From assembly GCA_020725385.1 (NCBI GenBank), contig DYFC01000034.1:1-64000 (forward strand): DNA of 64,000 bases. Direction: 5' to 3'. Positions 20,964 through 53,825 of this stretch are shown piece after piece. A program made the translations under genes and the position numbers. This stretch comes from Nitrospira japonica (lineage in GTDB: Bacteria > Nitrospirota > Thermodesulfovibrionia > Thermodesulfovibrionales > SM23-35). The stretch's first letter is position 1; the number at the start of each line of letters is the position of its first letter. The notes beneath the pieces are model-generated. The model was not told the origin of the DNA. It made no database searches and worked only from the letters and a program-made list of their open reading frames with translations.

Positions 20964-21219
20964 ACAACCCCCTAACCCCCTTGACAAAGGGGGAATAGGT
21001 GTAGGGAATAACAAAGGGGGAAAGGCACAACCCCCTGACCCCCTTAACAAAGGGGGAAAGGCACAACCCCCTAACCCCCTTGACAAAGGGGGAAAAGGGT
21101 AGTGGTTAACAAAGGGGGAATAGGTTGTGGAGAAGGGGTTACCTTATAAATTCCCCCTTAAAAAAAAGGAGGTTACCTTATTATATTCCCCCTTAGAAAA
21201 GGGGGATGAAGGGGGTTGT
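20964..21219. mobile_element. Family-B element with expanded left array
   Basis: Hairpin units at 20964, 21027, 21063; inverted right arm ends at 21219. Confidence 0.75.
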
Positions 21220-21221
21220 TT

Positions 21222-21692
21222 ATGAAGCTTTATTACAACCCAAAACTAAAATCTCTTTCAAGAGAACTAAGAAAAAAAGGGGTTCTTTCAGAAGCATTAT
21301 TATGGAACTACTTAAAAGGCAGAAAATTGAGAGGCTATTTATTTACAAGACAAAAACCTATTGGAAATTATATAGTAGATTTTTTTTGTAGCAAACTCAA
21401 ATTAGTTATAGAGATTGACGGGGTAAGTCATGACGGTAGATACGACTATGATGAAGAAAGAGAAAAGTATCTCAAATCATTGGGATTAAAAATATTAAGG
21501 TTTAACGATACTGATGTTAAAAAAGATATAAGAAATGTATTAATAGGTATTGAAGGTTGGATTGAAAGAAAGGAAAAGGGAGTAAACAACCCCCTGACCC
21601 CCTTAACAAAGGGGGAAAGGCACAACCCCCTGACCCCCTTAACAAAGGGGGAAAGGCACAACCCCCTGACCCCCTTAACAAAGGGGGAATAG
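21222..21692 (+). CDS. DUF559 / Vsr-like PD-(D/E)xK endonuclease domain protein
   Basis: SEALLW, RQKPIGNYIVDFFC, VIEIDG.SH, LG..ILRF motifs; C-terminus is NPLTPLTKGE x3. Confidence 0.88.
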   Translation: MKLYYNPKLKSLSRELRKKGVLSEALLWNYLKGRKLRGYLFTRQKPIGNYIVDFFCSKLKLVIEIDGVSHDGRYDYDEEREKYLKSLGLKILRFNDTDVKKDIRNVLIGIEGWIERKEKGVNNPLTPLTKGERHNPLTPLTKGERHNPLTPLTKGE

Positions 21693-21763
21693 GGTAGTGG
21701 TTAACAAAGGGGGAATAGGTGTTGACAAAGGGTATGCCATTATGAATTCCCCCTTTGTTAAGG
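21586..21763. repeat. Family-B array: three tandem 36-bp units plus partial inverted arm
   Basis: ACAACCCCCTGACCCCCTTAACAAAGGGGGAA at 21586, 21622, 21658; TTCCCCCTTTGTTAAGG at 21747-21763. Confidence 0.9.
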
Positions 21764-21810
21764 TGAAATAGCAACATATGAATTTACTTTACTTATAAAG
21801 GAGTGGAGCC

Positions 21811-23787
21811 ATGAAAAAATATTTCTGCGTTTTTATATGCCTATTCATCGTATTATCAGGCATTCAAGCCTTTGCAGGCAATTCTTCAGAAAATGTAACC
21901 ATAACCAAACCTAAAATAACTGTGGATTCAATTCTTGGAGAATTAAACAAAGGCAAATATGTTCAGGGTGAACTCCTTGTTAAATTCAAATCAGGCGCTT
22001 CGAAACAAACGTCTCAGGCAATTCATCAGTCATTAGGCGCAAAACTAATTAAAAAGTCAGCTATACTTGAAAATGTTGAACGTGTAAAGCTTCCCTCTGG
22101 TTTATCTATAAAAGATGCAATTATTCAATATATGTCAAATCCAGATGTTGAGTATGCATCTCCTATTTTCATCAGAAAAGCTTCTGGAATCAGCAAACTC
22201 ATGCCCGATGATCAGTTCTTCAGGGACCAATGGGCTTTAAGGAATACCGGGAAATATGCATATGGAACAAAAGGTGCTGATATTGATGCAACATATGCAT
22301 GGCGTGTTTCAACCGGAAATTATGGAATAGTAGTAGCTGTTATCGACACCGGTATTGATTATACCCATCCTGACCTTGCTTCTAATTTATGGAGAAATAA
22401 TGCAGAATGTAATGGTACAGCAGGTGTTGATGATGATGGCAATGGTTTTATTGATGACTGCACAGGATGGAATTTTGTAACATGCGAGGAATGGGGTGAT
22501 TCGGGGTGTCTTTATCCAACGACCGGAAATAATGACCCTATGGATTATTACGGTCATGGAACACATGTGGCAGGAATTATTGGAGCAATCGGAAACAATG
22601 GTGTAGGCGTGACAGGGGTGATGTGGAGAGCCCGAATAATGCCTGTAAGGGTCTTAAATCAATATGGTGAAGGTGATGATTCAGATATAGCAGAAGGTAT
22701 TAAATATGCTGTTGACAATGGAGCAAAAGTTATAAATGCGAGTCTTGGCGGCTACGGGACAAGTCCTGTTCTGGAAGATGCAATGAATTATGCGTATTCA
22801 CACGGCGTTCTTTTTGTTGCAGCAGCGGGGAACGAGTCAAATAATAATGATATAAATCCTTTCTATCCGGCAAGCTATTCATATGCAAATATAATTTCAG
22901 TGGCTGCAACAGATCAGGATGACCTTAGGGTTCAATTTAGCAATTTTGGTTATAGCTCTGTTGATGTTGGAGCTCCGGGTGTTTATATCATAAGCACCGT
23001 GCCAACATGGTGGGCTGATTATTATGGTTATGGTTATCTTGAGCATTTTGCAGGAACTTCAATGGCAGCGCCTCATGTTAGCGGTCTTGCAGGGCTTTTA
23101 TATTCATACTACGTTAATTTTGACTATAGTCAAATAAAGAATATGATTATGAGTTATGTAGATGTACTTCCATCGTTGGATGGCTGGGTTTTTTCAAGAG
23201 GAAGAATAAATGCATTCAGCTCAATGTCTGCCTTATGGGAGCCTTTTGATCTTAAATTGAAAATAAAAGGTTCATATGTTGAGCTTAAATGGACTGATGT
23301 TGCGCATGCCGAGCAATATACGCTTGTTGAACGTAAGACAGAAGGCGGAACATATGTTACACTTGCGACATTAGGCGCAAATGTAAATTCATATACAGAC
23401 ACTTATGGAATATCTGAAGGTGTTAAATATACATATCGCATTAGACTTAAAAATCAGATCGGCGAAACACCGGGACATCCTGATAATGAACGCTCTATTT
23501 CAACCGGTTTGATTGCGCCATCAGGGCTTAGAGCAACTGCACTGTCTAAATCAAAAGTAAAACTAACGTGGTTTGATGGTTCGGGTTCTGAAAAAGGCTT
23601 TAAAATATACAGGCACAATGGAACAGGTTCTTATATACATATAAAAACAGTTGGCAAAAATGTAACTTCATATACTGATAAGAAACTTGCCACAGGAACA
23701 AAGTACTGGTATCAGGTAAAAGCGTATAATGACTCGGGAGATTCTGATCCGTCAAATGAGGCAGAAGTTACAACCTCAGCCAAGTAA
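21811..23787 (+). CDS. Secreted S8 subtilisin-like serine protease with C-terminal FN3 domains
   Basis: Signal peptide, VAVIDTG, HGTHVAG, GTSMAAP catalytic triad motifs. Confidence 0.93.
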   Translation: MKKYFCVFICLFIVLSGIQAFAGNSSENVTITKPKITVDSILGELNKGKYVQGELLVKFKSGASKQTSQAIHQSLGAKLIKKSAILENVERVKLPSGLSIKDAIIQYMSNPDVEYASPIFIRKASGISKLMPDDQFFRDQWALRNTGKYAYGTKGADIDATYAWRVSTGNYGIVVAVIDTGIDYTHPDLASNLWRNNAECNGTAGVDDDGNGFIDDCTGWNFVTCEEWGDSGCLYPTTGNNDPMDYYGHGTHVAGIIGAIGNNGVGVTGVMWRARIMPVRVLNQYGEGDDSDIAEGIKYAVDNGAKVINASLGGYGTSPVLEDAMNYAYSHGVLFVAAAGNESNNNDINPFYPASYSYANIISVAATDQDDLRVQFSNFGYSSVDVGAPGVYIISTVPTWWADYYGYGYLEHFAGTSMAAPHVSGLAGLLYSYYVNFDYSQIKNMIMSYVDVLPSLDGWVFSRGRINAFSSMSALWEPFDLKLKIKGSYVELKWTDVAHAEQYTLVERKTEGGTYVTLATLGANVNSYTDTYGISEGVKYTYRIRLKNQIGETPGHPDNERSISTGLIAPSGLRATALSKSKVKLTWFDGSGSEKGFKIYRHNGTGSYIHIKTVGKNVTSYTDKKLATGTKYWYQVKAYNDSGDSDPSNEAEVTTSAK

Positions 23788-40803: not shown

Positions 40804-42231
40804 TTAAGTTATTAATTTTCTCGTGTCCCAGAATTTCCATTTTAGGTAGTCATTAATGCCTTTAGCTGCTTTTCTGCCTGCACCCATCGCAAGAATTACT
40901 GTTGCAGCGCCTGTAACAATATCACCTCCTGCAAATATGCCGGGTTTTGAAGTCATTCCTGTTTCATGGTCAGCGATTATATAATTTTTCTTGTTAAGAG
41001 CAAGATCTGGTATTGTGCTGGTTAGCAATGTATTCGACCTTGTTCCTATAGCAGGTATTGCAACATCTATATCAAGCTTAAACTCGCTTCCTTTTATTGG
41101 TACAGGTTTCCTCCTTCCAGAAGCATCAGGCTCGCCAAGTTCCATTTTTATACATTCAACAGCACAAACATTTCCTTTGCCATCATCAATGAATTTTAAT
41201 GGAGCAGTGAGAAACATGAATTCAATTCCTTCTTCTTTTGCGTGATGTATTTCTGCTTTCCTTGCAGGCATTTCTTCTTCAGAGCGACGGTAAATGAGAT
41301 ATACTTTTTCCGAGCCAAGCCTTAAAGCAACTCTTGCAGCATCCATTGCAACATTGCCGCCTCCAAATACAGCTACATTTTTTCCTTTTTTAATAGGTGT
41401 ATCATATTCGGGAAAAAGATAAGCTTTCATAAGATTTGCTCTTGTAAGAAATTCATTCGCAGAATAAATTCCATTTAAGTTTTCACCCGGAATTCCAAGA
41501 AAAACAGGCAGTCCCGCGCCTGCCCCAATATAACATGCATCATAACCCTGTTTATTCATGAGGTCATCTATAGTAAAAAGTTTCCCTATTACCGAATTAA
41601 GTCTTATCTCAACTCCGAGCTTTTTTATATATTCAACTTCTTTTTCAACTATAACCTTTGGCAATCTGAATTCCGGTATCCCGTAAATAAGGACTCCCCC
41701 GGGTTTGTGGAGTGCTTCAAACAATGTAACCCGATGTCCTTCTTTTATAAGATCTGCTGCGCATGAAAGTCCTCCGGGTCCGGAGCCGATTACAGCAACT
41801 TTTCTTCCTGTTGATTTAGGTTTTTCCGGTATTTGTATTTCACCGCTTTCACGTTCAAAATCAGCGACAAATCTTTCAAGATTACCAATTGCAACTGGCT
41901 CTCCTTTTTTTCCAAGAATACATCTTGATTCGCACTGTATTTCTTGAGGACAAACTCTTCCACATACAGCAGGCATTGCATTTTCTTCTTTTATTTTCCA
42001 TGCTGCTTCTATAAATTTTCCTTGTTTAATTAATTTAATAAATGCAGGTATATCAATCGATACAGGGCATCCTTCCCTGCATGTAGGTTTTGCACAATTT
42101 AAACAACGGGAAGCTTCTTCAACAGCTTCTTTAGGAGAATAACCAAAAGGCACTTCATCAAAATTTCTTGCTCTTATTATAGGGTCCTGTTCTCTCATCC
42201 TGATTCTGCTTTTTTGTTTCTTTTCTTCCAT
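40804..42231 (-). CDS. nfnB: NfnB/SudA, large subunit of NADH-dependent reduced ferredoxin:NADP+ oxidoreductase (GltD-like)
   Basis: CLNC...C..GCP and CGRVCPQE.QCE Fe-S motifs, GSGPGG, GGGNVAMD; paired with nfnA; no gltB nearby. Confidence 0.88.
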   Translation of the reverse strand: MEEKKQKSRIRMREQDPIIRARNFDEVPFGYSPKEAVEEASRCLNCAKPTCREGCPVSIDIPAFIKLIKQGKFIEAAWKIKEENAMPAVCGRVCPQEIQCESRCILGKKGEPVAIGNLERFVADFERESGEIQIPEKPKSTGRKVAVIGSGPGGLSCAADLIKEGHRVTLFEALHKPGGVLIYGIPEFRLPKVIVEKEVEYIKKLGVEIRLNSVIGKLFTIDDLMNKQGYDACYIGAGAGLPVFLGIPGENLNGIYSANEFLTRANLMKAYLFPEYDTPIKKGKNVAVFGGGNVAMDAARVALRLGSEKVYLIYRRSEEEMPARKAEIHHAKEEGIEFMFLTAPLKFIDDGKGNVCAVECIKMELGEPDASGRRKPVPIKGSEFKLDIDVAIPAIGTRSNTLLTSTIPDLALNKKNYIIADHETGMTSKPGIFAGGDIVTGAATVILAMGAGRKAAKGINDYLKWKFWDTRKLIT

Positions 42232-43061
42232 TATTTCACCCCTGCTTTATAGTGTTCCATGGCAATTTTTTCTTCATCAATATACATTCTTTGCCTTGAC
42301 ATTAAGAGATTGAAATCAACCTTATGTCCATCGAATTCAGGTCCATCAACACATGCAAATTTTGTTTCACCGCCGACTTCAACCCTGCATGCTCCACACA
42401 TTCCTGTTGCATCAACCATTATGGAATTCAGACTGACAATAGTTTTAACATTATGTTTTTGAGTAGTAATGCATACAAATTTCATCATTATCGCAGGTCC
42501 AATTGCATAAACGAGTTTTACACTTTTATCTTCATGCAAAATTTCATCAACAGGCACGGTAACAACAGCTTTTCTTCCGTAAGAACCATCATCGGTTACA
42601 ACTATCAATTCATCCGATACACTTCTCATTTTGTCTTCCCAGAAAATGAGTTCTTTCATTCTTGCTCCAATTATAGATATTACAGTATTGCCTGCTTCTT
42701 TTAATGCACGTGCAATAGGATAAACAGGTGCGATTCCAACACCGCCTCCAACACAAATAACTTTGCCAAAATTTTCAATATGCGAAGGAATTCCGAGAGG
42801 ACCTATAACATCTGTAATATAGTCACCTTCGTTTAATGTAGAAAGCTCATGGGTAGTTTTACCGATTTTTTGGAAAACAGTTGTAATAGTTCCTTTTTCT
42901 CTGTCAAAGTCTGCTATTGTAAGGGGAATTCTTTCTCCTTTTTCATGAATGCGAAGCACAAAAAAATTGCCTGCCTTTGCTTTTTGTGCTATTTCTTTTG
43001 CATCAATTACAAATAGAACTACAGCATCAGACAAGATCTGTTTTTCGAGGATTTTGAACAT
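42231..43061 (-). CDS. nfnA: NfnA/SudB, small FAD/[2Fe-2S] subunit
   Basis: ERIPLTIAD, GGGVG, MVDATGMCGACRV...CVDGPEF. Confidence 0.9.
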   Translation of the reverse strand: MFKILEKQILSDAVVLFVIDAKEIAQKAKAGNFFVLRIHEKGERIPLTIADFDREKGTITTVFQKIGKTTHELSTLNEGDYITDVIGPLGIPSHIENFGKVICVGGGVGIAPVYPIARALKEAGNTVISIIGARMKELIFWEDKMRSVSDELIVVTDDGSYGRKAVVTVPVDEILHEDKSVKLVYAIGPAIMMKFVCITTQKHNVKTIVSLNSIMVDATGMCGACRVEVGGETKFACVDGPEFDGHKVDFNLLMSRQRMYIDEEKIAMEHYKAGVK

Positions 43062-43361: not shown

Positions 43362-43733
43362 ATGCCTGGAACGTATTTGCCAACAGAATATTTACCGGTT
43401 TTGATTTTTATACTCGTTGCAGAGGCGTTTGGTTTTGGCGCACTGTTAATAGGAGTAGTATTCAGACCTAAAAAGCCTTACCTTGAAAAATTACTGCCTT
43501 ATGAATCAGGTATTGATCCCAAAGGAGAACCTCGCACAAGATTTGCAATTCGTTTTTATATAATAGCAATGCTTTTTGTGGTTTTTGATGTTGAAGCAAT
43601 TTTTATTTATCCATGGGCAATTGTATTTGATAAGATCGGCATATTTGCATTTATTGAAATGGTTATCTTTATTCTGATACTTTTAGTCGGATACATCTAT
43701 GCCTGGAAAAAAGAAGCTTTTGTCTGGGATTAA
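43362..43733 (+). CDS. nuoA: NADH-quinone oxidoreductase subunit A
   Basis: K..PYESG, FY..AMLFVVFDVE..F.YPW. Confidence 0.96.
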   Translation: MPGTYLPTEYLPVLIFILVAEAFGFGALLIGVVFRPKKPYLEKLLPYESGIDPKGEPRTRFAIRFYIIAMLFVVFDVEAIFIYPWAIVFDKIGIFAFIEMVIFILILLVGYIYAWKKEAFVWD

Positions 43734-43758
43734 AATACCTAACAGGGGGTTATTGTAG

Positions 43759-44277
43759 ATGCTGGATACATCGAGTTTAGGCCTGATTCAAGTGCAGCAG
43801 GATGTTAAGATACTGCCTCCAAATGCTATTATTACGACTTTTGACAAAATTATTAACTGGGGCAGGCTTTCATCTATATGGCCTATGACATTCGGACTTG
43901 CTTGATGTGCTATTGAGATGATGGCCGTGGGCGCATCACATTATGATTTTGACAGGTTCGGTGTTATTTTTAGAGCTTCACCCCGACAGGCAGATTGCAT
44001 TATAATCGCAGGCACAGTTACTAAGAAAATGGCTCCAATTGTAAGAAGAGTTTATGATCAAATGCCTGAGCCGAGATATGTTATCTCTGTTGGAAGTTGT
44101 GCATGCACCGGAGGGATTTTCAAAACATACAGCACAGTACAGGGTTGCGATACTTTCCTGCCGGTTGATGTTTTTATCCCTGGTTGCCCTCCAAGACCCG
44201 AGACATTTCTTGAAGGTGTAATGTTGCTTCAGGAAAAAATAAGAAAAGAACAGGCGAGGTGGAGTCCATGGCGGTAA
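43759..44277 (+). CDS. nuoB: NADH-quinone oxidoreductase subunit B, 172 aa with in-frame TGA at codon 49 (probable selenocysteine)
   Basis: [16 protein letters not shown]-[TGA 43903-43905]-[25 protein letters not shown]; the ORF track shows only the part after the TGA. Confidence 0.9.
43919..43938 (+). promoter_or_regulatory. Candidate SECIS hairpin of nuoB
   Basis: TGATG-GCC-[GTG]-GGC-G-CATCA; loop G at +22 after UGA. Confidence 0.6.
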
Positions 44278-44849
44278 CCGAAGTTGTAGCAGGTTTGTAT
44301 CCTGCCGGAATAGAGCAGGAAAAAATAGCTGAAATGATAAAAGAAAAATTTCCCGAGCAGGTAATTGATGTTACCAATTTCAGGGATCAGGTTGCTGTTA
44401 TTATAAAGAAAAATCAGAGTTTTTCAATCCTTAAATATCTCCATGATGAACCAACTCTTAGTTTTGACCATCTTAGAGATCTAACTGCTGTTGACTGGTC
44501 TAATAAAAAAGAAGTAAGATTTGAAGTCGTTTATAATCTTTTATCAACAAAATACCGTCATATACTAAGAATAAAAGTACAGGTTCCGGAAAATGACGTG
44601 AAAATTGCTTCGGTTGTGCCGATATGGGCAGGAGCAAATTGGCATGAACGTGAATGTTTTGATATGTTCGGAATTCAATTTACAGGTCATCCCGATTTAA
44701 GAAGAATTTTAATGCCAGAGGACTGGGAAGGTTATCCATTGAGAAAAGATTATCCTTTAAAAGGATATGAAGGAGATAAAGACTGGCCTGGATTTATTCA
44801 AGTTATTAAAAGATCTCAAGAACTGAAGGAGTTTGAGTGGCATGATTAA
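44259..44849 (+). CDS. nuoC: NADH-quinone oxidoreductase subunit C
   Basis: [31 protein letters not shown]. Confidence 0.95.
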
Positions 44850-46311
44850 GATGCAGGAGCCTGAAAAGATTTTTGAGACGAGAGAACTGAATGTTAATAT
44901 GGGGCCACAGCATCCGGCTACCCATGGGGTATTAAGAGTTGTATTGGACCTTGATGGTGAAACTATTGTCAGACTTACTCCATACGTTGGTTATCTGCAT
45001 CGTGGTATAGAAAAGCTCGGTGAAAGTCTGAGTTATTTTCAGGCATTGCCTTTAACAGACAGGATGGACTATGTCTCAGCAATGTCCAATAATATAGGTT
45101 ATTGCGTAGCTGTTGAAAAACTTTATGGAATAGAACCTCCGCCAAGAGCAAAATTCATAAGAACAATTGTTGGAGAGTTGTCAAGAATTTCAAATCATCT
45201 CTTATGGCTTGCAACACACGCTCTTGACATCGGCGCAATGACAGTCTTTCTTTATTGTTTCAGGGAAAGAGAATGGATACTTGAATTATTTGAGATGATA
45301 TGCGGTGCAAGACTTACCGTTACATATCCAAGAGTTGGTGGAGTAAGAAACGATATATCCAAAGAATTTATAGATCATCTCGTAAAATTCCTTGCAGAAT
45401 TTCCTTCAAGAATACTTGAATATGAAACATTAATTGATCAGAATAGAATCTGGCTTCAAAGGACTGTAGGTATTGGTGTTATCTCTGCTGAAGAAGCCAT
45501 TAACTGGGGAATGACAGGACCTACATTAAGAGGTTCTGGAATTCCGTATGATATTAGAAAATTTATGCCTTATGATGCCTATGATCAGGTTGAATTTGAA
45601 ATTCCTATAGGTACCGCAGGCGATACATATGATAGATACCGTTGCAGAATGCTTGAAATGAGGCAGTCTGTAAAAATAATCATACAATGTCTCGAGAAAC
45701 TTCCTGCCGGTCCTGTAATGGCTGATGCTCCAAAGTTTGTACTTCCTCCAAAAGACAAAATGTTAATAATCACACATCCTGTAAATGAAATTGCATATTT
45801 CATAGATGAAAAAGCATGTAAAGGATGTGGAATGTGTTTAAGAGCATGTCCTGCAAAAGCAATAACAGGTGAGAAAAAGAAACCGCATAAAATTGATCAG
45901 GCTTTATGTCTGCAATGTGCCACCTGTTTTGTTACATGTAAGTTCAAGGCTTTAAAAATAGTTCCGGGAGGAAAAGGACAGACAGAGGAGAAACTTGTAG
46001 AGCTTGCAGCGCAGCCTGTTTCGGATGAACTAAAACAGGCTCAAGAAGCACTCGTTGCTCATTTTGATTTCATAAAGAAAGGACCCAAGGTTCCTGAAGG
46101 TGAAGTATATGTAGCAACAGAAGTCCCGAAAGGAGAGCTTGGATTCTATTTTGTCAGTGATGGTACGCATAAACCATATAGAATGCGTGTTAGGTCGCCA
46201 TCCTTTATTCATGCAGGATGTCTTGAAAGACTCTGTAAAGGGCATTTGGTTGCGGATGTTATAGCTAATATTGGAACGATTGATATCGTTCTTGGAGAGT
46301 GTGACAGGTAG
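44842..46311 (+). CDS. nuoD: NADH-quinone oxidoreductase subunit D with inserted 2x[4Fe-4S] ferredoxin domain
   Basis: [31 protein letters not shown]; insert [12 protein letters not shown]...[11 protein letters not shown]. Confidence 0.95.
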
Positions 46312-46314
46312 AAT

Positions 46315-47373
46315 ATGAATATGGCAAATGTAATAAGTCCTACAACTGTTGATGCTTTAATTAAATTTGGCATTGATGTAGCTATTATTCTTCTTAAAAT
46401 AGTAATAGTTCTTGCGGTTGGCTTACTTCATGTAGCATATGCAACATATTTCGAACGTAAAGTAATAGGTCATATGCAGGTAAGACTTGGACCAATGAGG
46501 GTTGGACCTCACGGTCTTCTTCAGCCTTTTGCTGATGGTATAAAACTTTTCTTTAAAGAAGACATAATCCCTGCTCAGGCTGATAAAGTAGTCTTTTATA
46601 TTGCTCCTATTATTTTTATGGCTGCTGCAATGGTTAATTTGTCCGTAATTCCATTTGATGCAAATTTTGTAATTGCTGATATTAATGTTGGATTGCTTTT
46701 CATCTTTGCGATGGCTGGAGTTGGTGTTTATGGAATATTTATATCAGGATGGGCATCAAATTCAAAATATGCATTCATGGGAGGACTTAGATCATCTGCA
46801 CAGGTTATAAGTTATGAAATTGCGATGGGTCTCAGCCTTGTTGGTGTTATGATGATGGCGGGTTCTTTAAATCTCTCGGATATAATCAGGGCACAAGGTG
46901 AATCAATATTTGGCATGTACGCTATCCCCCAGTTTATAGGATTTATAGTATTTGTAATTGCTGCAGTTGCAGAAACAAACAGAACACCGTTTGATTTGCC
47001 CGAAGCCGAAAGCGAATTAGTAGCAGGTTATTTTACAGAATATAGTAGTTTCAGATTTGCTCTATTCTTTCTTGGCGAATATATAGCAATGATTCTTATG
47101 GCGTCATTATGCACAATATGTTTCCTCGGTGGATGGACATTGCCATGGTATGTTTTGAAAATTTTCCCGTTCCTTAGTTATGTGCCGGGAGTTGTATGGT
47201 TTGTGTTGAAAGTTTATGCATTTTTCTTCTTCTATTACTGGATAAGAGCAACAGTACCAAGATACAGATACGACCAGTTTATGGCTATAGGCTGGAAGAT
47301 TTTAATTCCGGTTGCGATAGGAAATATATTATTAACAGGTCTTGTGAAAATTATTTTGAAAGAGGTATTGTAG
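46315..47373 (+). CDS. nuoH: NADH-quinone oxidoreductase subunit H
   Basis: ERKV...MQ.R.GP, PFADGIKL..KE, NRTPFDLPEAESELVAG. Confidence 0.96.
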   Translation: MNMANVISPTTVDALIKFGIDVAIILLKIVIVLAVGLLHVAYATYFERKVIGHMQVRLGPMRVGPHGLLQPFADGIKLFFKEDIIPAQADKVVFYIAPIIFMAAAMVNLSVIPFDANFVIADINVGLLFIFAMAGVGVYGIFISGWASNSKYAFMGGLRSSAQVISYEIAMGLSLVGVMMMAGSLNLSDIIRAQGESIFGMYAIPQFIGFIVFVIAAVAETNRTPFDLPEAESELVAGYFTEYSSFRFALFFLGEYIAMILMASLCTICFLGGWTLPWYVLKIFPFLSYVPGVVWFVLKVYAFFFFYYWIRATVPRYRYDQFMAIGWKILIPVAIGNILLTGLVKIILKEVL

Positions 47374-47374
47374 C

Positions 47375-47899
47375 GTGACATTCAAACATTTCATTAAAAC
47401 AATTACCTTTATAGAAATATTGAAAGGTATGGCTTTAACATTAAGAAGGATGTTTTCTAAGGCAGTTACAATACAATATCCCGATGAAAGAAGAAAGATT
47501 GCGCCTGGTTTTAGAGGGCAACATGCTCTTTCAAAACGTGGCGGGAAAGCAAAATGTGTTGGTTGCGGATTATGCGCTACAATATGCCCTTCGCAATGTA
47601 TAAGCATAACGAGAGAAAAAGGTCAGGTTACAAAATATCAAATAGAGCTTCTAAGATGTATATATTGTGGATTTTGTGTTGAAGCTTGCCCGTATGGAGC
47701 TATCTCTCTAACTGAGAATTATGAATATTCTTCTTACAACAAACAGGATTTAATGATGACAAAGGAAAAATTATTATCAAACTGGGATAAATATATGCCC
47801 GGTACAAAAGGCGAAGAATATTACAAAAAATTCTGGAGGCCTATGTCAGAGGATTTCGGTACACCTCCCGGACAGGCAATGTATGGAGGTAAAAGATAA
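47375..47899 (+). CDS. nuoI: NADH-quinone oxidoreductase subunit I
   Basis: TIQYP, FRG.H, CVGCGLCATICP, CIYCGFCVEACP. Confidence 0.95.
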   Translation: MTFKHFIKTITFIEILKGMALTLRRMFSKAVTIQYPDERRKIAPGFRGQHALSKRGGKAKCVGCGLCATICPSQCISITREKGQVTKYQIELLRCIYCGFCVEACPYGAISLTENYEYSSYNKQDLMMTKEKLLSNWDKYMPGTKGEEYYKKFWRPMSEDFGTPPGQAMYGGKR

Positions 47900-48411
47900 T
47901 GGTATCCATAGGCTTTTTTATATATTTTGCTTTTGCAATTGTAGTTCTTTCATTGCTTGTAGTAACAAGAAGGAATCCTGTTCACAGTGTTTTATGGATG
48001 CTTCTTTTGTTTTTCCATATAGCAGGAGTATATTTGTTCCTTAACGCTGAATTTATGGCTGCAATACAGGTCATTGTATATGCAGGAGGTATCCTTGTTT
48101 TATTCTTATTTGTTGTTCTTTTAATGAACTTACGAGAAGAGTTATCAATAGGTAAATACACCACATTTGGCCCGACAGGTTTTACTTTCGCTTTAGGACT
48201 TTTTGTAGCTGTTTCTATGGCACTGAGTTCTTTTATAGCTGCGCCTCCCGGCAAATATTCAATAGATTTAATCAAGCAGGAGACACATGTAAAAGCACTC
48301 GGTAAATTGTTATATACAGAGTTTATTTATCCTTTTGAAATTGCTTCTTTGATTCTTTTAGTTGCAATGATTGGAGCAATAGTCCTTGCGAAAAGGAGGC
48401 TTAAGAGTTAA
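47899..48411 (+). CDS. nuoJ: NADH-quinone oxidoreductase subunit J
   Basis: NPVHS, QVIVYAGGI.VLFLFV, FE..S..LL.AMIGA. Confidence 0.95.
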   Translation: MVSIGFFIYFAFAIVVLSLLVVTRRNPVHSVLWMLLLFFHIAGVYLFLNAEFMAAIQVIVYAGGILVLFLFVVLLMNLREELSIGKYTTFGPTGFTFALGLFVAVSMALSSFIAAPPGKYSIDLIKQETHVKALGKLLYTEFIYPFEIASLILLVAMIGAIVLAKRRLKS

Positions 48412-48412
48412 G

Positions 48413-48718
48413 ATGGCGGTTCCATTAAGCTGGTACATGTTATTGAGTCTTGCTGTATTTTCAATCGGTGTGTTTGGTTTTCTTTCAAGAAGAAACATTA
48501 TTATTATGTTAATGTCTATAGAATTAATGTTAAACGGAGTAAATATTAATTTAATCGCTCTCAGTCATTATATTCAGGATTTAAGGGGCCAGATACTTGC
48601 GTTTTTTGTGATAGCGGTTGCAGCAGCCGAGGCGGCGATTGGACTTGCGATTGTGATTGCGATGTTCAGGAACAGGGCAACTGCGCATGTTGATGAAATC
48701 AAAGAGATGCAGGGTTGA
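48413..48718 (+). CDS. nuoK: NADH-quinone oxidoreductase subunit K
   Basis: RRN.I..LMSIELMLN, AAAEAAIGLA. Confidence 0.95.
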   Translation: MAVPLSWYMLLSLAVFSIGVFGFLSRRNIIIMLMSIELMLNGVNINLIALSHYIQDLRGQILAFFVIAVAAAEAAIGLAIVIAMFRNRATAHVDEIKEMQG

Positions 48719-48747
48719 TTAACAAATGAGTATAGAGGAATAAGAAT

Positions 48748-50832
48748 ATGGCAAATATGGAATTACAATGGTATCATGTTTTAATACCTTTTCTTCCGCT
48801 AACCGGTTTTATAATTAATATTCTACTTGGCAAAGAAGTAACCAGATATAAAGCTCACTGGTTTGCTGTTTCTTCTGTTTTTGGTTCATGGCTATGTTCG
48901 CTCGCTACATTACAGGATGTTCTTGGAGGCAAGATAATCGATGCCGATCTTTATACATGGATACTTTCAGGCACATTTAAGGTAGGGGTGGGATTTTTAA
49001 TTGATCCTTTAACTGCAGTTATGCTCATTGTTGTTACAACCTGTGCAACTTTGATTCATATTTATGCAATAGGTTATATGCATGGTGACACAGGTTATTA
49101 CAGATTTTTCTCATATCTGAATCTTTTCACATTCTGTATGCTTATGCTTGTAATGGGCAATAACTTCCTCCAGCTTTATTTCGGATGGGAAGGTGTAGGA
49201 CTTTGCTCTTATTTCTTGATTGGATATTATTTCAATAAAAAATCTGCTGCAGATGCTGGAAAGAAAGCCTTCATAGTCAATAGATTCGGCGACTTTGGTT
49301 TTGGAATCGGTGTTTTTATGGTCTTTTTAACATTTGGAACTTTACACTATGCTGATGTTTTTGCGAATGTTAGCAGTATTGCCGGTAAAACAGTCAATTT
49401 TCTTGGTTTAAATGTTGACCTTCCAACATTGATTGCACTATTACTTTTTTGCGGTGCGGTTGGAAAATCAGCCCAGATTCCATTACATGTCTGGCTTCCA
49501 GATGCAATGGAAGGTCCCACACCTGTCAGCGCATTAATCCATGCTGCCACAATGGTTACAGCGGGTGTATTTCTCGTTGCAAGATGCAATCCTATTTTCA
49601 ACCTTTCTGAAATTGCAATGAATACAGTCGCAATTATCGGGGCGTTGACAATGTTCTTTGCAGCAACAATCGCTATAACGCAAAATGATATAAAAAGAAT
49701 TATAGCTTTTTCTACATGTAGTCACTTAGGTTATATGTTTCTTGCCTGTGGAGTTGGAGCTTATGCAGCAGGAATATTCCATCTTTACACCCATGCATTT
49801 TTCAAAGCACTTCTATTTCTTGCAGCAGGTAGTGTAATTCATGCAGTTCATACAAATAATATTCAGTTTATGGGTGGATTGAAAAAATATATGCCTATTA
49901 CATACGCGGTTTTCGTTATTGCTGGGTTAAGTGCCGGCGGATTTCCCGGTCTTTCCGGATTCTTCAGCAAGGATGAGATTATATGGTCTGCATATGCTTC
50001 CCATTCAAGCGTAGGTAAATTTGTATGGATACTCGCACTTGCCGGAGCATTCTTTACACCTTTCTATACATTTAGATTAATATTCAGGACTTTCTTCGGA
50101 GAATATCGTGGTGGACTCGAGGCAGAAGAAGCAGCGACTCATGCACATAGCAGTTCACATGGTTCGGGGCATAGTTCACATGGTGCCGGTCATGATTCTC
50201 ACGGTTCAGGACACGACCCGCACGGACATGATTCATCTCATGGTTCCGGACATGATTCACACGGAGGACATGGACATGGTCCCCATGAATCACCTTATAT
50301 TATGACAGTGCCCTTGATGTTTCTTGCTGTTGGAGCAATAGCTGCCGGCTGGGTTGGCATTCCGCCTTTACTCGGGGGAGGAAATCATTTTGCTCATTTC
50401 TTACAGCCTGTTGTAGGCCACCCGGAATTTCATGGCACTCATGCTGAAGAATGGGGTGTAATGATATTATCAACCACAATTGCACTAATTGGCCTGGGAC
50501 TTGCAGCATTTATGTATTTAAGAAAAACCGATTTACCCGAGAGAATTTCAAAACAATTCTCATTGTTATATAAAATTTTATATAACAAATATTATGTGGA
50601 TGAATTTTATAATCTTACTATTGTGCAGCCGACTCTTAAACTTGCAAATAAAGTGCTTGTAGGATTTACAGATGCCAAGATAATTGAAGGTATAGTTAAT
50701 GGTGTGCCTAACTTAATAGGAATATTCAGCCAGAAACTTAGAAGGCTTCAAACAGGAATAGCGCATCATTATGCAATATTTATGGCAGCAGGTGCAGTTT
50801 TTATAGTTGCACTGGTAATTTTATTGAGTTAA
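48748..50832 (+). CDS. nuoL: NADH-quinone oxidoreductase subunit L with His-rich loop
   Basis: GKSAQ.PLHVWLPDAMEGPTPVSALIHAATMV, HAFFKALLFL. Confidence 0.96.
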   Translation: MANMELQWYHVLIPFLPLTGFIINILLGKEVTRYKAHWFAVSSVFGSWLCSLATLQDVLGGKIIDADLYTWILSGTFKVGVGFLIDPLTAVMLIVVTTCATLIHIYAIGYMHGDTGYYRFFSYLNLFTFCMLMLVMGNNFLQLYFGWEGVGLCSYFLIGYYFNKKSAADAGKKAFIVNRFGDFGFGIGVFMVFLTFGTLHYADVFANVSSIAGKTVNFLGLNVDLPTLIALLLFCGAVGKSAQIPLHVWLPDAMEGPTPVSALIHAATMVTAGVFLVARCNPIFNLSEIAMNTVAIIGALTMFFAATIAITQNDIKRIIAFSTCSHLGYMFLACGVGAYAAGIFHLYTHAFFKALLFLAAGSVIHAVHTNNIQFMGGLKKYMPITYAVFVIAGLSAGGFPGLSGFFSKDEIIWSAYASHSSVGKFVWILALAGAFFTPFYTFRLIFRTFFGEYRGGLEAEEAATHAHSSSHGSGHSSHGAGHDSHGSGHDPHGHDSSHGSGHDSHGGHGHGPHESPYIMTVPLMFLAVGAIAAGWVGIPPLLGGGNHFAHFLQPVVGHPEFHGTHAEEWGVMILSTTIALIGLGLAAFMYLRKTDLPERISKQFSLLYKILYNKYYVDEFYNLTIVQPTLKLANKVLVGFTDAKIIEGIVNGVPNLIGIFSQKLRRLQTGIAHHYAIFMAAGAVFIVALVILLS

Positions 50833-50859
50833 AAAGGATAAAACTCTTAGAGGAGAACA

Positions 50860-52401
50860 ATGGAACAGGTAATAATGAATAATCTGAATTACCCCATACT
50901 TAGCACCGTTATATTTCTACCAGTTTTGGGCGCGCTTCTAATTCTCATTAACAGAAGATCATGGGAGACCCTGACAAAATGGATAGCATTGGGAACGAGC
51001 ATTTTAACTTTTATAGCTTCAATTCCTTTATTTACTCATTTTGACAAGACCACCCATAAGATGCAATTTGTAGAGAGATTTTCATGGATTCCCAACTGGA
51101 ATATTTATTATTTTCTCGGAGTTGATGGCATAAGCGTTCTATTTGTTCTTCTTTCGACACTATGCGCTATTCTTTGTGTATTAATATCATGGACAGCAGT
51201 TACTAATAAAATTAAAGAGTTTTATATAGCTATTTTATTAACAACATCTTTTATGATCGGTGTCTTCTGCTCCCTGGATTTTTTCCTTTTTTATCTTTTC
51301 TGGGAAGCGATGCTTATACCTATGTTCCTGATCATCGGTGTCTGGGGCGGACCAAATCGTATATATGCTGCAATTAAGTTCTTCCTTTATACATTAGTAG
51401 GAAGTGTCCTGATGCTTGTTGGAATAATCGTTCTTTATCTTTATTCAGGTAAAACATTTGATATTCTTACAATGATGACAAAGAATTATCCTTATACAAT
51501 GCAAATATGGCTTTTCTGGGCATTTTTTGCAGCTTTTGCTGTTAAGGTGCCAATGTGGCCAGTGCATACATGGTTGCCCGATGCACATACCGAAGCTCCA
51601 ACAGCAGGTTCGGTTATTCTTGCTGCTGTCCTTATTAAAATGGGTGCTTATGGTTTCCTGAGATTTTCATTGCCCCTGCTTCCCGAAGCATCAAAAGCAA
51701 TGACACCTGTTATGTTAACGTTATCAGTTATTGCAATTATTTATGGAGCTATCATATGTTTAGGCCAGACAGACCTGAAAAGACTTATTGCATACAGTTC
51801 GGTAAGTCACATGGGATTTGTAACACTCGGTATTTTTGCACTAAATACACAGGGAGTTGAAGGCGGAATACTACAAATGCTCAATCATGGTGTAGTAACA
51901 GGAGCTCTCTTTTTATCTGTAGGTATTGTTTATGAAAGAACACATACAAGATTAATTGCTGATTATGGTGGTCTTGCTACCGAGATGCCAATATATTCAT
52001 CATTTTTTATGGTGTTTACCTTAGCAGCAATTGGGCTTCCTGCAACAAATGGTTTTATAGGTGAATTCCTGATCCTTTTGGGTGGATTCGCTGCAAATAA
52101 ATGGGCTGGAGTCCTTGCTTGCACTGGAATAATCATAGGTGCAGGTTATATGCTCTGGCTATATCAAAGAGTATTTTTTATGGAAGTAAATCCCAAGCTT
52201 CATGGACTGGTTGATATGAATGTAAGGGAAACTATAGCATTATTGCCCATGTTAATACTCGTATTCTGGATAGGTGTTTATCCTAATTCATTCCTTAGCT
52301 TTATGCATACTTCTGTGCAACATCTTTTAGAGAGAGTTAATAGTGGCGGGATTGCCCAGGAAGCACAGATAGCTAAAAATATTATGGAGGTAATCAGATG
52401 A
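50860..52401 (+). CDS. nuoM: NADH-quinone oxidoreductase subunit M
   Basis: KVPMWPVHTWLPDAHTEAPT, IAYSSVSHMG. Confidence 0.96.
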   Translation: MEQVIMNNLNYPILSTVIFLPVLGALLILINRRSWETLTKWIALGTSILTFIASIPLFTHFDKTTHKMQFVERFSWIPNWNIYYFLGVDGISVLFVLLSTLCAILCVLISWTAVTNKIKEFYIAILLTTSFMIGVFCSLDFFLFYLFWEAMLIPMFLIIGVWGGPNRIYAAIKFFLYTLVGSVLMLVGIIVLYLYSGKTFDILTMMTKNYPYTMQIWLFWAFFAAFAVKVPMWPVHTWLPDAHTEAPTAGSVILAAVLIKMGAYGFLRFSLPLLPEASKAMTPVMLTLSVIAIIYGAIICLGQTDLKRLIAYSSVSHMGFVTLGIFALNTQGVEGGILQMLNHGVVTGALFLSVGIVYERTHTRLIADYGGLATEMPIYSSFFMVFTLAAIGLPATNGFIGEFLILLGGFAANKWAGVLACTGIIIGAGYMLWLYQRVFFMEVNPKLHGLVDMNVRETIALLPMLILVFWIGVYPNSFLSFMHTSVQHLLERVNSGGIAQEAQIAKNIMEVIR

Positions 52402-53825
52402 ATTTCCCCCTTCCTGATCTTAATCCTGTAATGCCTGAAATACTGATGACTGCATTTGCATTAATTGTGCTTTTACTTGATTTGATTGTGAAAAAGAAAG
52501 AAGCTGTAGCTGTAATTAGCATTGCAGGCACAGCAATAGTATCACTAAGTCTTCTAAATACATCAGGCTCTACATTCGGGGGAATGTATATAGCTGACGG
52601 ATATAGCACATTCTTTAAAATCATATTCTTTATAAATGTCATATTAACGATATTGATTTCAATTAAATATATTGCTGTAGAAAGAGTTAATTATGGTGAA
52701 TATTATAGTTTAATACTTTTTTCGACAGTTGGTATGATGATAATGGCCTCAGCTTCTGACCTGATAACGCTTTACTTAGGTCTTGAATTAATGGCATTAA
52801 GCACTTATGTATTAGCCGGATTTATAAGACATAATCTTAAATCGACTGAATCTGCACTTAAATATTTTCTTCTGGGAGCTTTTTCATCAGGATTCTTGCT
52901 CTATGGTATTTCTATTGTATATGGACTTACAGGTACAACGGATATAAAGGCAATAGCAACATTCATAACAGAAAGAGGATTAAGCGGAAATTTATCGCTT
53001 CTTCTTGCGATTGGAATGCTTACTGTTGCGTTTGGATTTAAGATTGCTGCGGCTCCATTTCATATGTGGGCTCCCGATGTATATGAAGGAGCTCCAACTT
53101 CAATAACAGCATTCATGTCAGTTGGCCCAAAAGCAGCTGGTTTTGCTGTTATTGGAAGAGTTTTTATGATAGCTTTTGCAGCTGTAAAAGCAGACTGGGC
53201 AACTATCTTGATCCCGATATCAATTCTTACAATGGCAGTTGGTAACATTGTAGCATTATCACAGACGAACATAAAGAGAATGCTCGCATATTCTTCTATA
53301 GCCCATGCTGGATATGCATTGCTTGGTATAATTACAGCCAACTCAGAGGGTATATCAAGCATGATGAATTATCTCTTTATCTATGCTTTCATGAATATCG
53401 GAGCATTTGCAGTTATCATAATGCTTAGAAGCGAAGGCATAAAAGGTGAAGATTTAAGCGACTATGAAGGGCTTTCAAAAACACATCCTATGGCAGCGGC
53501 TTTAATGCTGATTTTTATGTTTTCATTGACCGGAATCCCACCAACAGCAGGTTTTATTGGTAAATTATATATTTTCATGGCTGCAATTAATGCAGGATAT
53601 ACATGGCTTGTTATTATAGCTGTCATATTTAGCGCTATTTCAGCATACTTTTATTTACGAGTTGTAATGTATATGTATATGAGGGATCCAAAAACTGAAC
53701 TACCTTTAACTACATCCTTTACAAATGGATTAGCCCTTGCAGTTACAACAGCAGCAGTATTGATCATAGGTGTTTTCCCGACAATGCTTGTGGAATTTGC
53801 CCGTGCTGCATTGAAGAGTTTTTAG
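52398..53825 (+). CDS. nuoN: NADH-quinone oxidoreductase subunit N
   Basis: FKIAAAPFHMWAPDVYEGAPT, KRMLAYSSIAHAGY. Confidence 0.96.
   Translation: MNFPLPDLNPVMPEILMTAFALIVLLLDLIVKKKEAVAVISIAGTAIVSLSLLNTSGSTFGGMYIADGYSTFFKIIFFINVILTILISIKYIAVERVNYGEYYSLILFSTVGMMIMASASDLITLYLGLELMALSTYVLAGFIRHNLKSTESALKYFLLGAFSSGFLLYGISIVYGLTGTTDIKAIATFITERGLSGNLSLLLAIGMLTVAFGFKIAAAPFHMWAPDVYEGAPTSITAFMSVGPKAAGFAVIGRVFMIAFAAVKADWATILIPISILTMAVGNIVALSQTNIKRMLAYSSIAHAGYALLGIITANSEGISSMMNYLFIYAFMNIGAFAVIIMLRSEGIKGEDLSDYEGLSKTHPMAAALMLIFMFSLTGIPPTAGFIGKLYIFMAAINAGYTWLVIIAVIFSAISAYFYLRVVMYMYMRDPKTELPLTTSFTNGLALAVTTAAVLIIGVFPTMLVEFARAALKSF

Follow-up and report, generated by a model that had tools for sequence, protein, structure and literature searches.

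An in-frame UGA at a cluster N2 ligand codon of nuoB and its probable reading as selenocysteine

How is a UGA codon read when it stands in frame at the place of a cysteine that ligates cluster N2 of respiratory complex I? The question is raised by the nuoB gene in a 64,000-nt stretch of DNA from contig DYFC01000034.1 (the window; its source genome is referred to as G000). Electrons pass to quinone from cluster N2, the final carrier in complex I, and the unusual pair of neighboring cysteines that ligate this cluster has long figured in debate on how electron transfer is coupled to proton pumping. Here the first codon of this tandem pair is UGA. Our results indicate that the codon is almost certainly the site of programmed recoding of some kind. 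Comparison of genes and genomes further suggests that in this organism it is probably read as selenocysteine (Sec), directed by a hairpin resembling a Sec insertion sequence (SECIS) and serving as a ligand of N2.

The in-frame UGA codon of nuoB

The gene and the codons concerned are as follows (window positions).

43759..44277, + strand: nuoB (complex I subunit B, PSST or NDUFS7 homologue), 172 codons, one of them an in-frame UGA
43903..43905, + strand: in-frame TGA, nuoB codon 49, at the first Cys place of the N2-ligating tandem CC pair
43906..43908, + strand: TGT, Cys50, the second tandem cysteine, retained
44098..44100, + strand: Cys114 (GSCA motif), third N2 ligand position, aligned to the GSCA of NDUFS7
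44185..44187, + strand: Cys143 (GCPP motif), fourth N2 ligand position, in register with the conserved GCPP

A reading of the sequence alone had described FGLA-TGA-CAIEM in place of the conserved GLACCAIEM, in a frame intact on both sides, and this is what the window holds: positions 43891-43923 read TTC GGA CTT GCT TGA TGT GCT ATT GAG ATG ATG. Translation by table 11 splits the gene into an open reading frame (ORF) of 48 amino acids (aa; 43759-43905) and another of 119 aa (43918-44277). When read through, nuoB yields a single 172-aa protein with U49 in FGLA-U-CAIEMM, which matches the NuoB model TIGR01957 over its full length (238.9 bits; cut-off, 142.7) as well as NF005012 (251 bits; cut-off, 116). 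The protein matches PDB chain 6g2j_B with an E value of 2.1e-64, and in the U49 region it aligns without gaps with the solved chains of mitochondrial NDUFS7, Thermus Nqo6 and Escherichia coli NuoB. Because this alignment is residue by residue, U49-C50 can be placed on the conserved CC pair. The four positions of the CC ... GSC ... GCPP pattern, which are established from complex I structures as the ligands of N2, are all present as U49, C50, C114 and C143, the first being UGA/Sec and not Cys. The sequence-only reading also held that the other ligand motifs and the remaining nuo genes were intact; GSC114A and GC143PP are indeed preserved, and nuoA, C, D, H, I, J, K, L, M and N are full length. 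The second tandem cysteine is TGY in 50 of 50 orthologues from the order and in 20 of 20 further loci (15 TGA and 5 Cys forms).

One explanation would be that the TGA is an error of sequencing or assembly, or that UGA has been reassigned throughout the genome (for example, to Trp or Gly). Nothing except the one odd codon supports this, and we consider its probability negligible. Contigs assembled from public runs of other studies extend over codon 49, and none is listed as differing at 43903-43905: there are 0 differing letters in run X2 record 5 and in run X6 record 11 and 1 in run X7 record 15, outside the listed places. For the contigs of run X1, the codon 49 site falls outside their coverage. 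The same TGA is also found in other assemblies, which together with the run contigs refutes the suggestion of a sequencing error. Reassignment, as in codes 4 and 25, is contradicted by the 350 of 1,541 ORFs of at least 200 codons in G000 that terminate in TGA and by the retention of prfB, the gene for release factor 2 (505 bits; cut-off, 370); nuoK and nuoM of the same operon likewise terminate in TGA. A scan of the source genome for read-through of UGA gave 449 raw candidates, 20 of which were checked with Pfam: 4 were credible, all with UGA at Cys positions, 2 were ordinary stops and 14 had no Pfam match.

A second possibility is that the TGA is a real stop, leaving nuoB either as a pseudogene or as the 48-aa and 119-aa pieces, the latter restarting at the following ATG ATG. 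Table 11 does yield precisely those two ORFs, and the ATG codons lie no more than 5 codons past the TGA. However, a 119-aa product would be without two of the four N2 ligands, both flanks keep the frame, with conservation of up to 99% identity, and the other genes of the operon are intact. Gene callers split nuoB genes of this type, the one in the window being called as these same two pieces, and genomes that carry them may thus be scored as having a defective complex I.

Recurrence among relatives and selection on a downstream hairpin

The codon was compared among 61 genomes of the order, G000 included, 60 of which have a nuoB match. Exactly one TGA occurs in a full-length nuoB orthologue in 14 of the 61; among the 50 orthologues extracted, the TGA is at the codon 49 place in all 14, with TGC or TGT in the remaining 36. 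In a sample of 301 genomes from the phylum, the matches listed, which leave out 226 lower-scoring ones and bear on this class only, include at least 25 with one TGA, 15 of them in further genomes. In these 15 the TGA is again at the codon 49 place in every case, and all of these genomes belong to the same order except G252, which is from another order of the same class. Overall, this codon is TGA in at least 29 genomes and TGY in 41 Cys forms (36 plus 5), bearing out the alternation among relatives that the sequence-only reading had envisaged. In a gene tree built without the columns of the codon and the hairpin, the TGA state needs nine changes, at least four of them forced by well-supported branches; these counts are rough, coming from a quick search of 432 columns. 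The NuoB of the sister genome, G005, is 99% identical to that of G000, and the nearest named database proteins are from metagenome-assembled genomes labeled 'Nitrospirota/Nitrospirae bacterium'. A nonsense mutation, which had been listed among the alternatives, is refuted by this retention of the same TGA in relatives.

The sequence-only reading had also noted a hairpin downstream of the codon, with its first loop G at +22, which folding confirmed.

43919..43938, + strand: SECIS-like hairpin; 5' arm 43919-43926, GUG loop 43927-43929, 3' arm 43930-43938 with a bulged G at 43933
43914-43916 with 43941-43943, + strand: pairing of an optional 3-bp lower stem

RNAfold, applied to nt 10-45 past the U of UGA, gave an 8-bp stem with one bulge and the GUG loop at -9.8 kcal/mol. 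The hairpin spans 14-33 nt past the UGA and its loop lies at 22-24 nt, a distance typical of bacterial SECIS elements. Fold energy was rejected as a test of the hairpin, since the energy of a 63-nt folding segment is unexceptional (z = +1.44) and a comparison of TGA with Cys forms gave p = 0.13; a test on synonymous sites was used instead. In the seven TGA genomes of family f1, which represent six genera, all 47 four-fold sites outside the hairpin region vary. Within the hairpin, no variation occurs at the four-fold sites of stem codons +7, +9, +10 and +11, while loop codon +8 ends in C, G or T; codon +2, upstream, varies. The group formed by f3 and f7 (four genomes) behaves alike, with 46 of 50 outside sites varying, three stem sites invariant and one loop site variable. 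The f2 group (three genomes) provides weaker evidence, as only 32 of 56 outside sites vary and all four sites in the hairpin region are invariant. This pattern is decisive evidence that the hairpin is under selection. A real stop is hard to reconcile with synonymous constraint downstream, with the same TGA in at least 29 genomes or with a tree that demands at least four changes of state, and we regard it as very improbable.

Across clades, at least five hairpin sequences are found at one distance, with the loop 21-27 nt past the UGA and a G in each loop (5' arm / 3' arm; bulged bases in parentheses).

Version 1: UGAUGGCC / GGC(G)CAUCA
Version 2: UGACGA / UCGUCA
Version 3: GAUGGC / GCCA(G)UC
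Version 4: GGCCGC / GCG(A)GCC
Version 5: GGCUGC / GCAGCC

In version 2, which encodes the peptide MMTTGSSH, the Ser codons pair in the TGA forms and are unpaired in most Cys forms; this marks a functional RNA element that goes with the UGA. An Rfam search of the window at the gathering threshold returned two tRNAs only and no match to bacterial SECIS.

Many Cys-type (TGC/TGT) nuoB genes of family f1 (L032, L035, L036, L041, L044, L050 and others) have a hairpin, GGCUGC-AGGN-GCAGCC, at the SECIS position. Its energies range from -13 to -5.5 kcal/mol, and it is identical to the hairpin of the TGA form of G305 (L205). This hairpin could be a relic SECIS that remained after a change from Sec to Cys, a by-product of the codons for MMAAGAAH or a signal for the Sec-like tRNA with a GCA anticodon that is described below.

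Selenocysteine or cysteine at codon 49

In the mechanism that we favor, the short hairpin with its G-rich loop, starting 14 nt past the UGA, would act as a bacterial SECIS. SelB-GTP with charged Sec-tRNA would bind this hairpin as the ribosome reaches UGA49, and Sec would be inserted at codon 49 to give the full-length 172-aa NuoB, in which the Sec selenolate would replace the first tandem thiolate on the [4Fe-4S] cluster N2. By general chemistry, a selenolate could have a lower pKa, form a softer and longer bond to iron and bring a modest shift of potential or of the redox-linked rearrangement of ligands. At N2, selenium could act on the potential, on protonation or on ligand lability. Selenium in NuoB, its ligation of N2 and any tuning of the cluster are what we infer from the recoding signal, its conservation and the selection on it, all of which are observed. 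The repeated switching between Sec and Cys suggests, by analogy with other Sec/Cys pairs, that the benefit is quantitative and varies with the supply of selenium. PMC6288185 describes such a case in Treponema primitia, where Sec- and Cys-type formate dehydrogenase (Fdh) genes are expressed differentially with selenium availability, and states that the same regulation is assumed for Acetobacterium woodii.

The machinery for this route was sought in the G000 assembly (2.46 Mb in 71 contigs, 96.6% complete, 34.7% G+C). A tRNA-Sec with a UCA anticodon, SelA (628 bits) and two SelB-type factors (384 and 358 bits) are all present. The scan for read-through of UGA adds further genes, listed here with the tRNA.

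C13:40088-40185: tRNA-SeC(UCA), 72 bits
C27:32846-35563, - strand: FdhA-like fusion, 904 aa, with U in the molybdopterin domain at the usual Fdh place; a Pfam model spans the UGA
C31:134473-135621, - strand: RnfB-like polyferredoxin (L181, P0002), on the same contig as the window and outside it; PF04060 spans the UGA
C45:30971-31258, + strand: HesB/IscA-like protein, 95 aa, with UGA at a Cys position; a Pfam model spans the UGA
C23:3663-4982, + strand: GlpC/HdrD-like protein, 439 aa, with UGA at a Cys position; no Pfam model spans the UGA

In the RnfB-like protein, the UGA takes the place of the first Cys of an N-terminal Fe-S motif (AHAH-U-GACGFAGC), which would make it, after NuoB, another instance of Sec in the position of an Fe-S ligand. 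Orthologues with a TGA, counted by its presence and not by its position, make up 10 of 48 in relatives, with two in G005. Since both the machinery and other genes with UGA at Cys positions are present, UGA recoding is in use in G000. A small Cys/Gly-rich ORF at C31:110765-111211 has a strong hairpin past its TGA. The canonical route is complete, as judged by its genes, in relatives such as G042, a TGA-nuoB genome assembled as one complete contig, which has tRNA-Sec(UCA), SelA, SelB and a SelD that itself contains a UGA; a search of it at E <= 1e-9 revealed no other Sec-like tRNA.

Several observations weigh against selenocysteine. Chief among these is the failure to find SelD, without whose product, selenophosphate, SelA is unable to make Sec-tRNA. 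A family search did not find SelD in G000 itself, nor was it found in the sister G005 (98% complete) or in G024 (96%). Neither tblastn of G000 with the SelD of G015 (X at stops) nor a comparison of synteny with G001, G015 and G029 located a selD. In G015, selD adjoins three conserved genes; the syntenic place in G000 (C15:18315-19054) is an AT-rich gap of 740 nt with no remnant of the gene. By comparison, SelD scores over the cut-off in 57 of the 61 genomes of the order, nearly always with its own UGA. Other points concern the hairpin, for which the median energies of TGA forms (-8.35 kcal/mol) and Cys forms (-7.5 kcal/mol) differ little (one-sided Mann-Whitney p = 0.13). Many Cys forms of family f1 themselves fold into a hairpin there, which accounts for the overlap in energies. 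No RNA run holding the stretch is among the public sequencing runs listed. Finally, a Sec-like tRNA-Cys with a GCA anticodon stands beside the second SelB of G000, and PMC13582414 states that Sec-shaped tRNAs with Cys identity (tRNAReC), with UCA or GCA anticodons, have been reported to recode UGA as Cys by means of a SECIS. Two weak matches to SelD in G000 (69 and 55 bits) were rejected, as NCBIfam identifies them as ThiL and HypE.

The cassette in question has the following components.

C15:23004-23099 of G000: Sec-like tRNA-Cys(GCA), 96 nt, 57.7 bits to RF01852, called as Cys by ARAGORN
C15:21101-22957 of G000: second full-length SelB, adjoining the tRNA-Cys(GCA) (cassette 21101-23099; L002, L009, L159)

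This tRNA has the shape of tRNA-Sec, with an 8-bp acceptor stem, and its discriminator base is U. A tRNAReC system with a second SelB was reportedly described by Vargas-Rodriguez et al. in 2018. Among 20 second-tRNA loci fetched from the order, 17 are long tRNA-Cys(GCA) and none has UCA as a second-tRNA anticodon; of the other three, one is a true tRNA-Sec and two were left uncalled. The cassette of tRNA and SelB is present in 12 of 37 family f1 genomes, with or without a TGA-nuoB, and 10 of the 12 have SelD; in several relatives the tRNA-Cys(GCA) adjoins selD.

It is possible, therefore, that in G000 and its sister G005 SelD has been lost and that UGA49 is read as Cys, a Cys-tRNA of the tRNAReC type being brought to the same hairpin by the second SelB. 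An ordinary all-Cys NuoB would then be made by an unusual route. The failure to find SelD in two related assemblies, the clean gap at one place syntenic to selD and, in both genomes, the siting of a SelB paralogue next to a long tRNA-Cys(GCA) whose discriminator is U all fit this account. So does PMC13582414, published in 2026 on Group 4 hydrogenases with Sec, according to which both anticodon forms were reported to recode with a SECIS and which warns that UGA may in such cases mean Cys. However, a GCA anticodon does not pair with the third base of UGA. The sequence-only reading had named cysteine as an alternative by way of a tRNA-Cys with a UCA anticodon; a Sec-like tRNA-Cys beside a second SelB is indeed there, but its anticodon is GCA. 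Moreover, G000 and G005 have kept SelA and tRNA-Sec(UCA) intact, an unexpected state had Sec synthesis been lost long ago, and the cassette tracks neither the loss of SelD nor the presence of TGA-nuoB. In spite of the missing selD, selA, selB and tRNA-Sec persist, along with at least five genes that contain a UGA. The selD of G000 may merely be unbinned and, because the assembly is 96.6% complete, its absence is not proven. On balance, we consider the reading as Cys in these two genomes to be unlikely, and selenocysteine, as stated above, to be the probable residue.

The sequence-only reading had proposed a Sec-ligated cluster in complex I, an interpretation that our results support. What it implied about programmed recoding is supported by the recurrence of the codon, the alternation of TGA with TGY, the selection on the hairpin and the machinery. 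What it implied about the residue is qualified by the missing SelD and by the route to Cys; its call for Sec machinery is answered for the most part, with tRNA-Sec(UCA), SelA and SelB present but SelD not found.

Relation to known systems, wider occurrence and operon

Cys-type NuoB, Nqo6 and NDUFS7 are the nearest known relatives of this protein. They resemble it in family sequence (about 65% identity by eye to mitochondrial NDUFS7 over residues 23-166), in operon place and in the four N2 ligand positions. They differ in that here the first tandem Cys is a UGA followed by a hairpin, NuoEFG is lacking and NuoD has a ferredoxin-like insert. Methanogen HdrA and VhuD may offer a natural precedent for Sec at or near an Fe-S cluster, though in different proteins and with SECIS elements that, in archaea, lie in untranslated regions. 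The [NiFeSe] and Group 4 Sec hydrogenases offer another likeness: according to PMC13582414, Sec replaces a metal-binding Cys, here in the module ancestral to complex I, a UGA is read through and the SECIS loop has a conserved G, with the same tRNAReC caveat as for nuoB. In those enzymes, however, Sec occupies the Ni-Fe site of the large subunit, which corresponds to NuoD, whereas NuoB is the homologue of the small subunit, and its [4Fe-4S] cluster belongs to a quinone reductase that lacks a Ni-Fe site. Neither 'Nuo' nor 'complex I' occurs in that paper. The Sec formate dehydrogenases (FdhA/FdhF), one of which is present in G000, also use a UGA with a hairpin just 3' of it, SelB, tRNA-Sec and SelA; their Sec ligates the catalytic Mo or W (PMC6288185), whereas the Sec of NuoB would ligate an electron-transfer Fe-S cluster. 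The tRNAReC and second SelB system is matched in G000 by a Sec-shaped tRNA with Cys identity and a SelB paralogue. It differs in that all 17 tRNAs identified here have GCA and the cassette, whose link to the UGA of nuoB is unproven, is equally present in genomes with Cys-type nuoB.

A search of the literature for Sec as a ligand of an Fe-S cluster found no such statement. Likewise, no report of Sec in NuoB, NDUFS7 or N2 was found in the full-text literature, although an earlier listing in supplementary tables or subscription journals is possible. Five other selenoproteins are listed in PMC5109826, and an Rnf/Nqr-type 'subunit E' is listed in PMC2398784; NuoB is in neither. The main text of PMC7539508, on algal selenoproteomes, has 0 matches for NADH, NDUFS7, complex I, ubiquinone, PSST, dehydrogenase or respiratory. 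A Sec-type NuoB is marked by no NCBIfam model. None of the names of 120 listed full-length Cys-type NuoB proteins mentions selenocysteine, and split Sec forms are invisible at such lengths. The mechanism is the known bacterial Sec route, and the target, NuoB and its cluster N2, is new relative to the searchable literature.

If this reading is true, a natural enzyme with Sec at N2 would be a ready-made probe of the cluster, with 77Se as a handle for electron paramagnetic resonance and electron-nuclear double resonance. Sec and Cys sister enzymes of close relatives would permit comparison of potential, pH dependence and turnover, and a respiratory Fe-S ligand would join the short list of metal sites that use selenium.

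The breadth of the trait was gauged by an exact scan of metagenome contigs of the Joint Genome Institute with a degenerate pattern for A-TGA-C-A-(I/V)-E-M-M, which found at least 119 stretches. In the 80 loci examined, 81 of 81 matches are in frame in genes of the nuoB/NDUFS7 type, after (F/Y)G(L/I)A, and nuoA, C, D or H lies beside the TGA gene in 57 loci. Nine of the loci (L221, L226, L233, L240, L264, L269, L271, L275 and L289) are bacterial nuo operons with TGA at the same nuoB codon and a G+C content of 0.35-0.73. As these nine are unlike the Nitrospirota-like group in sequence and G+C, the trait appears to reach other lineages.

No nuo neighbor was seen in another 22 loci (L223, L224, L229, L237, L238, L242, L246, L248, L262, L263, L272 and 11 more), even on contigs of 5.7-13.4 kb. 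These have a high G+C content, a sequence of the mitochondrial or alphaproteobacterial type (CAVEMMH...) and N-terminal extensions, with up to about 100 residues ahead of U. In 5 of the 22 the frame is interrupted in an intron-like manner, and several of the genes with complete frames end in TGA. A match to a SECIS of the eukaryote type (SECIS_1) lies just past the coding region in L272 (824-895; 34.9 bits against a gathering score of 35, E = 0.0036); the Rfam scan, which took in 20 of these loci, found no SECIS in the other 19. As a lead only, we regard these 22 loci as probable nuclear genes for NDUFS7, from marine microbial eukaryotes, that share the Sec codon. Were that so, it would suggest that the mitochondrial complex I of marine protists is tied to the selenium supply of the sea. 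We would venture, at somewhat less than an even chance, that complex I with Sec at N2 is a widespread variant, gained and lost repeatedly in a Nitrospirota-like class, in other bacterial lineages and probably in marine eukaryote NDUFS7, and that where the cassette of GCA tRNA and second SelB is present, as in G000, the hairpin may allow the cell to alternate between Sec and Cys as the N2 ligand when the supply of selenium changes.

The operon around nuoB is arranged as follows.

43362..53825, + strand: 11-gene operon nuoA-B-C-D-H-I-J-K-L-M-N, with nuoB inside it
44833-46311, + strand: nuoD, 492 aa, with a ferredoxin-like insert at about 45763-46033

No nuoEFG genes lie between nuoD and nuoH in the operon, and the enzyme is without the NADH-binding NuoEFG module. 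Its electrons probably come from some donor that is not NADH. The insert in NuoD comprises about 90 residues after residue 311 or so and contains two CxxCxxCxxxCP motifs, as in a two-cluster ferredoxin; it scores 44.5 bits against RnfB-type and other 2x[4Fe-4S] models. Because the operon is without nuoEFG, this insert may be the entry point for electrons. Matches to nuoD of similar span (about 1.46-1.49 kb) adjoin nuoB in the closest metagenome relatives (L239, L244, L257, L266, L270 and L276). Divergent from the nuo operon, at 40804-43061 on the - strand of the window, is a pair of genes like the small subunit of NADPH-dependent glutamate synthase and a PyrK-type protein, an ordinary redox module that scores 580 bits against a gltA-type model.

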